A stretch of DNA of 63,337 nucleotides, filler included, from Atractiella rhizophila (lineage: Eukaryota), in assembly GCA_021432655.1 (NCBI GenBank). It is 34 parts of 34 records of this genome, joined end to end, with 100 filler letters (N's around TTAATTAATTAA, not from the genome) between each part and the next. Parts side by side here need not be neighbours in the genome. Positions count along the whole stretch, not along the records: positions 61,642 to 63,337 come from MU272882.1; 33 more parts are not named here. One strand, 5' to 3'. Below, one piece after another: positions 3,541-63,337 of the stretch (the stretch's first letter is position 1; each line of letters opens with the position of its first letter). A program made the translations under genes and the position numbers. The notes beneath the pieces were generated by a model. It did no database searches, was not told where the DNA came from, and saw nothing but the letters and a program-made list of their open reading frames with translations.

Positions 3541-3855
3541 GGTCTCGTAGGCTATGAGGTCTCTGTCTAGTTCTTCTCGCGTTCCTAAGGCCACGTTTCT
3601 TGGATTTGCGTTTGGAGTTGCTTGCCTTCCGTTTACTGTTCACAAGCGTGTCAGTGCCGTCGTCCCTTGGACATCCCCCCGCGCCAGGGGCTTAGCCCCT
3701 TGGACCCCAGCCTCCGGCTGCCACTGTGTGGAGCTCTTGCCTCTGCAGCCACTGCNNNNNNNNNNNNNNNNNNNNNNNNNNNNNNNNNNNNNNNNNNNNT
3801 TAATTAATTAANNNNNNNNNNNNNNNNNNNNNNNNNNNNNNNNNNNNNNNNNNNN

Positions 3856-37926: not shown

Positions 37927-39575
37927 AAATGTTTCAGTACCCTTCTGCTCGTAGTGACCGTGAATAAGAAAAGCATACCGGAAGAGTGGACACATGAACA
38001 TTCTTATGGATAACCACTCTGCTGTCATCCTTGTTCGTTGTGGAAGGGGAAGACTGGTGAAAAGGGTCGTCCACCAAGATCAGTTTCCGGTACAAAAGAT
38101 TAAAGAGGAGGCAAAGCCCGTCTAAAGCAGCGGGTTAGACAACCGTTAGAGAAAGAAAGCCGTCTTACAAAGCCGTCCCAGGGATTGTCCTACAGCAGTG
38201 GACGCGTTGGTGTTGTTATTGCGTACAAAGAGAACTGCGATCAAGTATAAGTCATTTTTGTGCAAAGTGAGGGCTCACTTACTGAAAGCTGCCAATGCTG
38301 TCATGGCAGAATAAAATTAGCGCTTGCTTGCAAAGAGCGTGCAAAACGAACAGGCAAGAGATGTAACAAAACCTAGTATACATTAGCCTTAGTTACATGC
38401 ACTGCGAGTAGACATACCTGTTTCAATAGCGTGCCCAGTTATCTGCACCGTTAGCGATCGTCGATCCTCAGAAATAACCCGTCTTTTACTTTGGATGAGG
38501 TACCAGATCAAGGCGCCGCAAATGGAAATGTCTAGTTCCAAAGTGAGCTTAGAAAGTATTGTTCCCCTCAGTGAGCGGATTGCTGACCTGTGGCTGCCTT
38601 CGTGCAAAACCAAACTCTGGCAGAAGAGGATAAGCCATTTCCTTCGAATGCTCTGGCAAGGGACGACGAACATGACCTGAGGAATAATTTTATTCCTGTC
38701 CAAGTAAGACGTATATCGGAGAACGGCAACGCAGACGGCTAGAGTAGGTATCAGAGACATTGCTTTCTTAAAAAATCGCCACAGACCAATGTTTCCTCCG
38801 AACTGTGAACAATGTCAGTATCCCATAAATCGCTCGAAGACAAACATACGGAGACTAGGGTCAGTAGAGCGAGAACGATGGACACAAAGTTGTTCGAGCT
38901 TAATTGCCAGTATCTATGGCACAGGTAGGTCTGGACGATCAGGGAAGTGACAGCGGTAGAAATGAGGTAAGCTGGCGCCAGCCAGATCAGAGGCATAACG
39001 CGTAAGAGTGGAGAACGAACTTGGGATGGGCCAATGCTGGACACACGATCAGCAACAGTGTGACCCATTCGAAAGGAATAAACACACTTGCGTCGCGAGG
39101 TATGCGTCCTCTGAAGAAATGTCAATTCCCAGCAGTGTACGAGAAACCAAAACTCACGACCCCAATGCGATATGGTGTACTGTATGTTTGGTCAGTTGCG
39201 CTCGGCTTCAATTTGGAAATGCAAACATCGTAAACACCTGTCTGTTACTCAGTTTAACGACAAGCTAGGTCAAGGAAAGCACACCAATCTGGCTGGCAAT
39301 AGTACAAAGTGTGTCCGACACACCCACCTGGCATTTTCTTAGTCCTTTTTCAGATGGGATATGAAAGACCGCACCAAGACTACAGCGATCTGGAGGACAA
39401 CAAAATCGCTAGTCCATTTCTTGAAATAAAGATAGGCAAGGGCCATCTCAAATGCCCAAAGCGCTGTATTGACCCATGATCCGATCACTATTATGCCCAC
39501 AATGTCAATGTAAAGCCATTCAATGGATATAAAGTACTCACAAAGAGTACCTGCAGTATCTTCAACAAGGGTCAT
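37927..39575 (-). CDS. DUF6534-like basidiomycete multi-pass membrane protein; 3' end approximate
   Basis: IVIGSWVNTALWAFEMALAYLYF, SLIVQTYLCHRYWQLS, VWF..AATDISICGALIWYL, AIETGMST; many short introns. Confidence 0.72.
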
Positions 39576-40682
39576 GATCTATGGTATCAACAATCTATTT
39601 AATGCTGGTATCTATCTCACTCTCCAACTAACGGTCTAGAAGAAGGGGTAGGTCGATTTCGTTGCTTATAAGGGCTGANNNNNNNNNNNNNNNNNNNNNN
39701 NNNNNNNNNNNNNNNNNNNNNNTTAATTAATTAANNNNNNNNNNNNNNNNNNNNNNNNNNNNNNNNNNNNNNNNNNNNATTTGGAGCATTTTCAGCAATG
39801 ACGAATGGAGGCTCTAATTTTCCCCAGCATTCAAGTTAGAACTACAGTCAGCTTTATAGATGGCAACAGACTTACTTATAATCTAAATGTTATGCAAACT
39901 TCATCATAGGTGCTTTCTGAGCTGTCTTGATTCGATTGAGGCAACGAGAATTTCCGCCGAAAAAGGCAGGTGCGCAGAATCATCATCATCATCATCAACT
40001 ACGCTGCGTCCAAAAAGAATTGAAAAGAGTCAAAAAAGAAGACCCCAGCTTCGGCACACTATAGCATTGCAGGTATGAGAGCGTTGTCTATCAAACTCTA
40101 TATTTACGTGGATGAGACCTTGTGTGAGGTTTACCAAGTGGTCCGGTGCTAATTAATGAGAGAATGAAAGAGAAATGACGCGCTGTTCAATATCTATGTG
40201 AAATTTTAGCAATGTTTGTTCAATTTCTACGTAACCCATAGTAGTAGCGAAAACAGGATCTAGCCAGTCTTGTCTTCTGGTGGAACCCCTCATCTCACAC
40301 CCTACTCTCGCTCCTCCCCCTCCTACTCCTAGTTATTCTGTTGGAAGTGTCTGAGAGAACATATCAAGAAGGGAGAAGCTACACTGTGAGTGTTTCATCT
40401 TTGGTTTGCTTTGGAGTCCCACTTTGTTGGACTCTGATGGTTCTGCCCTTTCCTGTTGATGTTGGTCCCACCTTCATCCCTAACCCTGACCGTGAATCCA
40501 CCATTGACACTTCTTCACAAAGCTCGAAAGGTCTCTTTGTAACGAGTCGCATGGTTCATTTCTAGTGCTTTGCCTATGAGACTGTACCATGTGAGTGAGG
40601 TCAATGTTTGCCCAAGCACATGAAACGAGGAATATCAGGCGTCACCCACGATGACGTCGTGAATGTTTCCCGACGCCTTGGT

Positions 40683-59844: not shown

Positions 59845-61460
59845 AAGATTCCTGTGCCGCTTCACGTACGTCGCCATTTGAGTCTCCGATGTTGGAGACC
59901 ATCGCAGCAGCGAATGGGGAGAGGAGAGGTTTGGGAGGCGGGACGGTGGTGGTTGAGAGAGCGCGGGAGAGGAACTGCAAGGTGCTGATTTTGACGGCTG
60001 GTGTCTTGTGAGATAGATAAGGAATAGTCTCCTCTAGTATATCTGGGAGGGTCGTGCTGGCAAAGACCGCGTCTAGGGCTGCAGCTAAAGCTTCTACCAC
60101 ACTTGCCTTCTTCTCTTTCAACCTCTCCAACAACGACTTGTAACACCCATCTTTGTATCGTCCAAACGTCGATCGCAGACCTTTCGCGAGTCCGGTTAGA
60201 CATTGAGCAGCCAGAGTGACGCAAATGACGTTTGAGTCTTTCTCCACTCTTACCCCGAGCTCCTTCACCAATTGGCCATAATCATCACCCTCCGCAAGTT
60301 TTGGGGTATTATTCAGTATCTCAAGCAAAGGCTCGAGCGCTTCCTCTTTCCTTTCCTTCCACTTCGAGCTCGCAATCTTAGCCCAAAATTCGCCAGGCAG
60401 CTTATTCATAATCGGTTTCGCTTCCATCAAGTCCATCGGGTCCATTTCCGCTTCTGGTTCTTCCCCTCCAGCCGCTCCATCTCCACCACCGGACGAGCCC
60501 TCCAATTGTCCTTCAGCCTCGCGTACAATCTTATCCCTCGTCTGTGCGCGCGTCAATCTCTCCTGTTTCGCAGTCCCCGCTCCCGCGCCAGACGCGTCGA
60601 GTTCGGAAAATTTGGATTGCAGTTCAGTCAGCTGGATGGGCTTGAGAGGAGGATCGAGGGTGGACAGAGCGGATGTGAGGGTGGAGCCTAGGTACGCGTA
60701 TAAGTTGCAGACTAGGGTCGTGCCTTCGGCTCGAACAGACTTGTCGTTGTGTGCGAAGATGCGCGGAAGGGAGGAGAGGACGAGCTTGGGAGGAACGATT
60801 TTCGGACCGAATTGCCTGCATGCCATCCCAATGAATACCGCTGTAACAACCCACAACCCGCTACGAATGGACAGGAATAGGATGAGAACACGTACCGAAC
60901 AATGCTTCCCATTGCAGTCACACAACCAGCGACTACCTTGGGCCCTTTGTTCCCTATCCCAGCATCGCTTCCAAGTATTTCAAACACGGCTTTCGCTCCT
61001 TCTTCACCCTCACACTCAACCCATCCTTCCAGACACTCGATGGCTTTCTTCTTCGTACCGGCGCGGGTATTTCCCACTCCTTTCTCCACCAAACCCTCTA
61101 TTATTCCCCCGCTTTCCCTAACGGACTTGAGGCCGCGGGATCCAACGACAGATATAAAAGATGATAGGGAAGAGAGCGCAGATTCGTGTGCGACCGCATT
61201 TGCTTCGCGAGTCAGAAGGGAGAGCAGAGAAGGGTTGTTGATGTATGGCGTTAATGAGGGATCGGAAGCGGGCGTAAGAGATGGCTGAAGCGAGGAGAAT
61301 AAAGAGGAAAGTGCATGATATCCGGATAGACGTGCTTTCCAGTTCTACTCGACGCAATCAGCACCAATCTGGAGGAGGTGCGAAGACACACCTTGTGCTT
61401 TATACGGTCCTCGATGGTGAGTTTGTCAAAGTCCTCTTCTGCGGGTGGACCACCATCCAT
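59845..61460 (-). CDS. STU2: XMAP215/Dis1/Stu2 microtubule polymerase (TOG1-TOG2), 3' truncated
   Basis: EEDFDKLTIEDRIKHK, PKVVAGC, FAHNDKSVRAEG, SSKWKERKEEAL, LLERLKEKKASV. Confidence 0.95.
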
Positions 61461-61641
61461 GATGAGGCTGGTGCAGGAATCTACAAGCGGAGGAGATCGT
61501 CGTCAATATGCAGGCGTTTTCCAGGCGTGACTTAGTCCGAGNNNNNNNNNNNNNNNNNNNNNNNNNNNNNNNNNNNNNNNNNNNNTTAATTAATTAANNN
61601 NNNNNNNNNNNNNNNNNNNNNNNNNNNNNNNNNNNNNNNNN

Positions 61642-62252
61642 GCAAACTCGATATACGCGAATCTACATCACATTCAGAGTACTTCCTGCATGGCATAAGG
61701 CTGCTACCCTTTGGGATGTCCAGTAAATTTGTCACAAAGTATGGTCACGCGGTTAATCGTTCCACAGGATTGGAAGTGTGTCTGGATCTCTTCTGGAGTG
61801 GAGCCATAGTCTCTGTAGCTAGGTTAGTCGAGTTGAAGATGGCAGTCTGTGACCGTACACCTTAAACCATACTTAGTTCTATCACTGTAAGGCAAAGCAG
61901 CCTCACATTACCAACAAAAACACTGCGAGCATCCACAATTTCCTTCTCCTCCAATCCTGTGGAAGATTGAGCATCCACATCAGCGTTCATCTCCCTGTCG
62001 ACCTCTGCTTGCATCTCGCGCAACTTCGCAGCTTCCGCTTCCATTTCCTTCACACGTTTCTTCATGGCTAAAGGCCTCAGCTCAATGACTAGACAACAGG
62101 AACGACAAGGGTGACTTGGACAGACCTTCGAGTTCCTGAAACCACCTCAGTGTTGACAAATGTCATTTGGGACAAAACTAGCTTACCTTGTCACCATCTT
62201 CTCCGTCTGCGTTCTCGTGGCCCACTGGTGATGAAGGGCGGGAGTCTGGCAT
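61642..62252 (-). CDS. pab2: Nuclear poly(A)-binding protein PABPN1/Pab2, 3' truncated
   Basis: [71 protein letters not shown]; needs 10-nt and 2-nt exons. Confidence 0.95.
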
Positions 62253-63018
62253 TGAAGGGAAACAAGAGCTCTGCTCTCTGAAAAATCGAGGAAAATGCAG
62301 CTCAAGAATGAAGTGGGATGTGAACACGTGACTACTTTTCAACTTGCTAATTACTACACCTCATCTTCACGTTTCTGATGGACATTTCTTTGCACCTAGA
62401 TAGAGCTTCAATCTTCGCATGCGATAGTCCTTCTGCTCCCTAGTAATGAGCCACCTATGTCTCATTTCATGTGATGCTCTGCTTTACATTGAAGTTGTAT
62501 CTCTTCTTGACAGTTTGATTTCCTCCCTTCCGGTACCTCTCCGTTCTCTTTTAGCCATCGCGACATCAGCCAATCCTTCACCACAATCATGCTATTGTTA
62601 CCTTGTCCGCTTCATTAGGGGGAAGTAATGTTGACTTTTGGTGATGTAGTTTACATTGACTTACCAGAGCTACGTTGACGACGCTGACAGCTCTTTAATA
62701 TGATTACAACAACAACGACAATCATTCTGCGCAACTTCCGTCAACTGTCAGTACTGGATGTATTAATAAACATGGTTTTAAACTTTCCTATGCCCTTATT
62801 TTCACATAATCTGTTCACTGCACATAAGATTGAGGCTTGTGTGAGTGGCGGTAGCGACAAAGACACTGAGAAGATAATTTACTATAAAATCACAATGTGA
62901 TTGCAATTGTTGGGGACCACAGCTCAAGAGCGAGTCCACTGACTCGAGAGAGCATAATGCATGGAGGTACTTCTTTTTGCGGTCGCTCTTGCTCTTTGAA
63001 TGCTTGTGGTCGTGGTGC

Positions 63019-63337
63019 CTATGTCGGATTATCAGCATACACATCCTTGATGTTGGGAAATAACTCGCCCGATTGAGGTACGCGACTTGTCGCTCTGCGA
63101 GGGCGAATCTCTGTAACTAGCACTTTGCGAGCACGTTGATTGACCTGTACAGGTTCGTACGCTTGCCTCGCTCGTTTCCCAAAATTTTCCGCTTTCTCGC
63201 GCTCTGCTTCTTCCTTGGAGGAATAATATGCTCGCCATGATATTGAGCTTAGTCTCAATTCACTGGTTTCAGGCCACCGCGTTATCACGAGTTTGAACCA
63301 AATTTCTTCCGCTTCTTTCAGTATATGCTGAGGTAAC
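63019..63337 (-). CDS. Probable Elongin A-like protein, C-terminal fragment
   Basis: PQHILKEAEEIWFKLVITRWP...SWRAYYSSKEEAEREKAENFGKRARQAY resembles the Elongin A (SIII A3) domain. Confidence 0.5.
   Translation of the reverse strand, partial: LPQHILKEAEEIWFKLVITRWPETSELRLSSISWRAYYSSKEEAEREKAENFGKRARQAYEPVQVNQRARKVLVTEIRPRRATSRVPQSGELFPNIKDVYADNPT

Follow-up and report, generated by a model that had tools for sequence, protein, structure and literature searches.

A probable two-nucleotide exon between two 46-nucleotide introns in pab2 of Atractiella rhizophila

We find that the pab2 gene of Atractiella rhizophila most probably contains a real, expressed exon of two nucleotides, GT (61860–61859, minus strand), which lies between two canonical U2-type GT–AG introns of 46 nt each and completes the valine codon of the RNP2 motif; we put the probability of this reading at about 0.85. 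Exons of this length are not new for basidiomycetes, and what is new is one more RNA-supported case, from the Pucciniomycotina.

Locus, transcripts and gene structure

Atractiella rhizophila is a root-dwelling fungus of the Basidiomycota (Pucciniomycotina, Atractiellomycetes). The window, by which we mean the whole stretch of DNA that was analysed (63,337 bases), consists of 34 contigs of 1.7–1.8 kb each, ordered by falling length. They are joined by linkers made up of 44 N, TTAATTAATTAA and another 44 N (1829–1928, 3756–3855 and so on to 61542–61641), so that genes on either side of a linker are not genomic neighbours. The pab2 locus lies on the last contig, 61642–63337.

The gene encodes a nuclear poly(A)-binding protein of the PABPN1/Pab2 type, as a preliminary description of this DNA had proposed: its product matches Pfam RRM_1, its closest solved structures are of PABPN1 type and its named matches include ‘polyadenylate-binding protein 2’. 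The RRM_1 match reaches 23.1 bits in the deposited protein for this locus (P0003; cut-off, 20.7), and exon 5 alone scores 19.4 bits, just under the cut-off. Among solved structures, the matches are to 2m70 (E-value, 1.5e-25; query 2–100 against chain 28–116), 2jwn (1.8e-16), 3ucg (7.1e-15) and 3b4d (9.5e-15). These PABPN1/Pab2 proteins combine a coiled-coil segment with a single RRM that carries VGNVDYG, as is the case here: the spliced reading gives VFVGNVDYG (RNP2) within a single RRM, and the helical segment that precedes the RRM also falls within the alignment to the PABPN1-type structures. The contig ends at 61642 inside RNP1 (FAYIEF) and therefore the window lacks the 3′ half of the gene; the contig encodes the first 121 residues, and what remains of the RRM, like the Arg/Gly-rich C-terminal tail expected of this class, would lie beyond its end.

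To the region 61642–62330 we could relate 24 public sequencing runs that contain part of it. Two of these (X1 and X2) contain all sampled words; they are DNA and probably the reads from which this assembly was made. In the remaining 22, the share of the words is 0.22–0.48. Contigs of four of the 24 runs (X1, X3, X5 and X8), which are assembled contigs and not raw reads, were aligned to the locus. The three RNA-like runs among them, X3, X5 and X8, are three separate samples, and most pieces of the X3 and X5 exons match the window with at least 99% identity.

The gene runs on the minus strand. The coding part of exon 1 (62252–62187) begins with an ATG at 62252–62250, and RNA contigs of X3 and X5 cover 62186–62330. 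Intron A (62186–62136; 51 nt, GTAAGC..TTTCAG), whose CTGA branch motif lies 11 nt before the 3′ end, is absent from the X3 and X5 contigs, which have a joint 62069→62186 with seven letters of exon 2 in between. Exon 2 is only 10 nt long (GAACTCGAAG; 62135–62126) and is present in contigs of X3, X5 and X8. It is followed by intron B (62125–62068; 58 nt, GTCTGT..CTTTAG), which has a CTGA 9 nt from its 3′ end; in X8 a joint 62067→62126 skips these 58 bases, with GT..AG ends on the minus strand, and in X3 and X5 letters of exon 2 stand between the two joints. Exon 3 (62067–61907; 161 nt), seen in all three RNA-like runs, encodes the coiled-coil segment and the start of RNP2 and aligns with the PABPN1-type chains. 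Downstream of the site of the microexon, exon 5 (61812–61708; 105 nt) starts with A GAC TAT, encodes RRM sequence that matches Pfam RRM_1 and is covered by RNA contigs. Intron E (61707–61663; 45 nt, GTAGCA..GATGTAG) interrupts the Gly codon of PKG in phase 2 and has a CTGA 11 nt from its 3′ end; the corresponding joint, 61662→61708, is present in contigs of X3 and X5. The first 21 nt of exon 6 (61662–61642; ..FAYIEF, RNP1) are covered by an X5 contig, and there the gene leaves the contig.

The contig of X8, which is a metatranscriptome, still contains intron A in its stretch 62126–62205, although introns B, C and D have been spliced out. Two of its letters are not those of the window (62169, G>C; 62170, G>A), and the partial splicing and these differences together point to pre-mRNA from a slightly different strain.

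RNA evidence at the microexon

At the site of interest, the minus strand reads GGT AAT and then intron C (61906–61861; 46 nt, GTGAGG..TTTAAG), which has a CTAA 12 nt from its 3′ end and lies in phase 0 at the Asn/Val codon boundary. Next come the two bases GT at 61860–61859, and intron D (61858–61813; 46 nt, GTACGG..GACTAAC..CTACAG), which has its CTAAC 11 nt from the 3′ end and lies in phase 2 within the Val codon, and finally A GAC TAT GGC. The two branch motifs lie near 61873 and 61824, respectively. The coordinates and letters that the preliminary description gave for the GT exon and both introns all match the window.

In each of the three RNA-like runs that were aligned, one contig carries a joint 61812→61905 that skips 92 bases. 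The depth of this contig is 658 in X3, 6.9 in X5 and 2.9 in X8, the shorter side of the alignment is 36, 91 and 101 letters long, respectively, and the placement is unambiguous. The joint is absent from the DNA run X1. Because the coordinates of the record run on without a break at the joint, the mRNA reads ..GGTAAT GT followed by A GAC TAT.., which is the junction that had been predicted (GGT AAT GT/A GAC TAT). Its translation contains the motif VGNVDYG, with the Val restored by the GT exon (GT+A) as anticipated. Removal of all 94 nt shifts the frame, also as anticipated, and translation then reaches a stop 20 codons after GN. A skip of 94 bases is not listed among the contigs of X3, X5 and X8, a type of record that drops rare forms. 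Over 61826–61894, the span in which half-spliced forms would show, RNA-contig coverage in the three runs is nil.

One intron or two

The mature mRNA fits both a two-nucleotide exon and a single 92-nt intron with GA..AG ends, and we therefore enumerated all parsings that reproduce it. There is one with a single intron (61904–61813, GA..AG) and there are 70 with two introns of at least 10 nt. Only 1 of these 70 has canonical ends throughout: a GT..AG intron of 46 nt, the exon GT at 61860–61859 and a second GT..AG intron of 46 nt. The 92-nt skip and this unique canonical parsing together point to the exon, which would supply the first two bases of the Val codon in the VGNV of RNP2. The aligner represented the mRNA by a single skip of 92 nt (ends GA..AG), and for this reason we regard the two-nucleotide exon as a strong inference.

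The internal signals agree with two introns. Each of introns A–E contains exactly one CTRA motif, the A of which lies 11, 9, 12, 11 and 11 nt from the 3′ end, respectively, so that the spacing in introns C (12 nt) and D (11 nt) agrees with that in the RNA-confirmed introns A, B and E (9–11 nt). The internal AG is thus preceded, at the usual spacing, by a branch motif that belongs to intron C, a feature for which a single 92-nt intron would have no need. In length, too, introns C and D (46 nt each) are similar to the RNA-confirmed introns of 45, 51 and 58 nt.

We estimated how often such a layout, defined as a central AG|GT|GT with halves of at least 35 nt and a CTRA 9–12 nt before the internal AG, arises by chance. 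Over both strands of the window it occurs in 46 of 113,682 94-mers, all from two sites, one of which is pab2. Shuffles of the pab2 block produce it in 47 of 200,000 cases, or in 4 of 200,000 if the second donor is also required to have a G at +5. The random expectation of the AG|GT|GT layout with its branch motif is thus about 2–4 per 10,000, and the full two-intron layout is present at 2 of the 38 AGGTGT sites of the window.

The reading as one non-canonical GA..AG intron of 92 nt (61904–61813), in which the retained GT would be 61906–61905 and the internal AG|GT|GT a coincidence, is improbable on these grounds. In its favour, no other parsing of the mRNA uses a single intron, the aligner chose this form (with ends CT..TC on the plus strand), and the RNA contigs, which leave 61826–61894 uncovered, contain no half-spliced form. 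GA donors are also in rare use, for example in human FGFR genes. However, the donor required here, GAGGCT, barely matches the U1/U6 consensus and a good donor, GTGAGG, lies 2 nt upstream of it; an internal layout with its own branch motif would have to be present at the above frequency of random blocks; at 92 nt, the intron would be about twice as long as the others of the gene; and several evolutionary changes would be needed, as against one intron gain beside a position that is common to relatives.

An artefact of assembly or strain would explain the two bases differently: the expressed allele would have GTGT at the donor, the window would be two bases short and an ordinary 94-nt GT–AG intron would follow GGTAATGT. 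This explanation implies that the true DNA reads GGTAATGTGTGAGG at the site, whereas a real microexon implies GGTAATGTGAGG. It has in its favour that the window is made of contigs of 1.7–1.8 kb, from a fragmented assembly, and that the RNA runs come from other samples, with the X8 contig different at 62169 and 62170. Against it stands a Logan contig of X1, unspliced and 4177 nt long with a word depth of 379, which matches 61642–62330 with 0 differences and 0 gaps; because X1 is probably the same read set as the window, this amounts to a second assembler on the same data, which is not fully independent. GTGAGG is not a collapse-prone repeat, and the near identity of the X3 and X5 exons to the window argues in the same direction. 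We consider such an artefact very unlikely.

Window-wide intron profiles bear little on the choice between one intron and two. A signal-only scan of intron lengths gave a weak ratio of real to shuffled counts of about 1.06 at 40–59 nt (80 versus 75.3) and about 0.73 at 60–159 nt, and an ORF-aware intron finder returned 426 candidates on the window as compared with 206–277 in three shuffles, with a flat and noisy length profile. Both profiles are too noisy to make 92 nt stand out as an unusual length. The local RNA fold of 61790–61930 is −36.7 kcal/mol, a single value that carries no weight in this choice.

Relatives and the origin of the introns

A metagenome scan with exon 3 yielded at least 48 confirmed loci among at least 593 pattern matches, with identities of at most 64% for the full-length matches listed. 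Of the 48 loci listed, 46 allowed the placement of both flanking motifs; the other two (L034 and L048) each lack one motif and were left out. GN-VDY is uninterrupted in 43 of the 46. The remaining three (L044, L045 and L046) carry one intron there, precisely where the Asn codon meets the Val codon, which is the position of intron C; GTC or GTT comes next, and then GAC. In two of the three (L045 and L046), an intron also falls where intron E does, after the GG of the Gly codon in PKG. Neither a counterpart of intron D nor a microexon is present in any of the 46 loci listed, all of which are distant (at most 64% identity over exon 3). In its first exon, L046 is closest to named proteins of Sporobolomyces, Rhodotorula and Rhodosporidiobolus (73–55% identity), which are Microbotryomycetes and belong to the same subphylum as Atractiella, the Pucciniomycotina.

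The simplest history suggested by these comparisons is that intron C is old and common to other Pucciniomycotina, with intron D as a gain 2 nt further downstream. The gain would have occurred between the GT and the third base of the Val codon, at a point at which GT already followed intron C, as it does in the relatives.

We also considered whether intron D could have arisen as a duplicate of intron C. The two introns align with a score of −6, which 12% of 500 shuffles also attain (shuffled scores, −10.4 ± 3.5); a search of the window for other copies of introns C and D returned only chance matches of 9–15 nt. As the two introns detectably resemble neither each other nor the rest of the window, there is no sign of duplication or of a repeated intron element.

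In the pab2 homologue of L044, the intron at the Asn|Val boundary is 25 nt long (1654–1678), and a second intron of roughly equal size lies at about 1884–1900.

Splicing order and possible regulation

We suggest that introns C and D are recognized by intron definition, as the signals of each (its own donor, branch site and acceptor) would allow, and that they are removed in succession rather than together. U1 on the second donor and the factors at the 3′ end of the first intron would be 2 nt apart and could not both fit, which is why consecutive removal would be expected. Both this steric argument and the removal order come from general knowledge of the size of the spliceosome and not from data on pab2. 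The donor GTACGG would also have to prevail over the overlapping GTGTAC two bases upstream, because use of the latter would take out 94 nt and disrupt the frame; GTACGG is the donor used in the RNA contigs seen.

The exon could be real and, in addition, regulated, as the preliminary description suggested, with a switch between the two donors or skipping of the exon giving a frameshifted, decay-prone mRNA that tunes the level of Pab2. The stop 20 codons into the frame left by 94-nt removal would suit such a role. Human PABPN1 is reported to autoregulate by intron retention, reportedly in work by Bergeron and colleagues from 2015. That known autoregulation, however, uses another intron, the 3′-terminal one. 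In Trichoderma, a switch that works through a microexon has been reported (PMC11121469). In our data, removal of 92 nt is the only form in all three RNA runs and no 94-nt skip is listed, with the proviso that contigs drop rare forms. On balance we regard regulation of the exon as speculative and unlikely.

A specific version, which we consider quite unlikely, is that the overlapping donors AG|GTGTAC (no exon) and GT|GTACGG (2 nt) form a frame-setting switch in which abundant Pab2 would favour the upstream donor or skipping. If this were true, 94-nt removal, a stop after 20 codons and decay of the mRNA would follow, and a factor of poly(A) and RNA surveillance would set its own level through a two-nucleotide exon.

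The deposited gene model

The translation of exon 3 retrieves a deposited protein, P0003, of 100 amino acids from the 1696-base contig (‘hypothetical protein BT69DRAFT_1234709, partial [Atractiella rhizophila]’). Its sequence is reproduced if exon 3 is extended to 61873 and joined from a donor GTATGG at 61872 to an acceptor AG at 61812–61811. The model thus runs exon 3 into the first intron of the pair (intron C), which accounts for ten extra residues; these face a gap in all four solved PABPN1-type chains. P0003 also carries an Asp-to-Asn change in the first strand of the RNA-binding domain and lacks exons 1 and 2 (the latter of 10 nt), and its junction has no match in the aligned RNA contigs of X3, X5 and X8. 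The expectation that gene predictors would miss a two-nucleotide exon is borne out by this model, which mis-splices at the site.

The reading proposed here would correct a public gene model by removing a spurious stretch of ten residues and restoring Asp in place of Asn in the first strand of the domain. For annotation pipelines it adds one more case in which a phase mismatch within a conserved motif signals a missed microexon.

Comparison with known tiny exons

The statement in the preliminary description that the exon is near the minimum size known is correct, given that exons of 2 nt and 1 nt are already documented in fungi (PMC12230235 and PMC12940212). Exons of 1, 2 and 3 nt number 13, 57 (in 50 genes) and 27, respectively, in the long-read re-annotation of Coprinopsis cinerea (PMC12230235). 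That fungus is also a basidiomycete, and its exons of at most 3 nt likewise break the frame if omitted and were missed by earlier annotations (PMC12230235). However, it belongs to the Agaricomycotina and Atractiella to the Pucciniomycotina, and the available part of the report provides no link at the level of the gene (PMC12230235). None of the terms pab2, PABPN1 and polyadenylate occurs in the five of its supplementary files that were searched (PMC12230235). The RNA-supported case described here, from Pucciniomycotina, joins a small number of documented exons of this size and suggests that exons of at most 3 nt are not confined to mushroom-forming fungi.

A single-nucleotide exon is present in CYP621A genes of Fusarium (AG|G|GT; PMC12940212). 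Like that in pab2, it is ultra-short, lies in a strongly conserved motif, was inferred from a phase mismatch, is confirmed by public RNA and was missed by pipelines (PMC12940212). It differs in that it is 1 nt long and belongs to an ascomycete P450 gene, as opposed to 2 nt in a basidiomycete, and in its proposed origin: its authors describe a cryptic intronic exon that rescues a lost base (PMC12940212), whereas the relatives of pab2 suggest that a second intron was gained beside an old one. In Arabidopsis, APC11 has a constitutive single-nucleotide exon, for which the authors argue for intron definition and successive removal of introns (PMC4674806). This exon, like the GT exon of pab2, is far below the footprint of the spliceosome; APC11, however, is a plant gene with longer introns that was tested with reporter constructs (PMC4674806), and the evidence for the pab2 exon comes from sequence and RNA contigs. 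The 94-nt unit of pab2, with its two 46-nt introns, may offer a compact natural substrate for the study of how exons below the footprint are handled and in which order introns are removed.

Stwintrons and zero-length recursive splice sites also involve adjoining or nested U2 introns that are removed consecutively and meet at an internal AG|GT, but leave 0 nt in the mRNA (PMC5639578 and PMC5587772). In pab2, two bases remain (92 are removed, not 94), and the arrangement is therefore neither a stwintron nor a zero-length recursive splice site. We found no earlier report of the pab2 exon in the literature on tiny exons, stwintrons, PABPN1 autoregulation and basidiomycete microexons, and a search by title and abstract found no splicing papers on Atractiella rhizophila.

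Other sites in the window

On the contig adjacent to that of pab2 in the window (59845–61541, minus strand), a gene with several short introns starts at about 61460 (MDGGPPAEEDFDKLTIEDRIKHK..); it may resemble the N terminus of TOG-domain proteins of the XMAP215/Stu2 type.

The sole other site in the window with a donor, a CTRA, AG|GT|GT, a second CTRA and an AG in succession lies at 39237–39236 on the minus strand of contig 37927–39678, in a membrane-protein-like gene. By eye, neither reading, with or without the GT, joined the downstream frames. This site may be a second two-nucleotide exon, or it may be a coincidence within a 104-nt intron.
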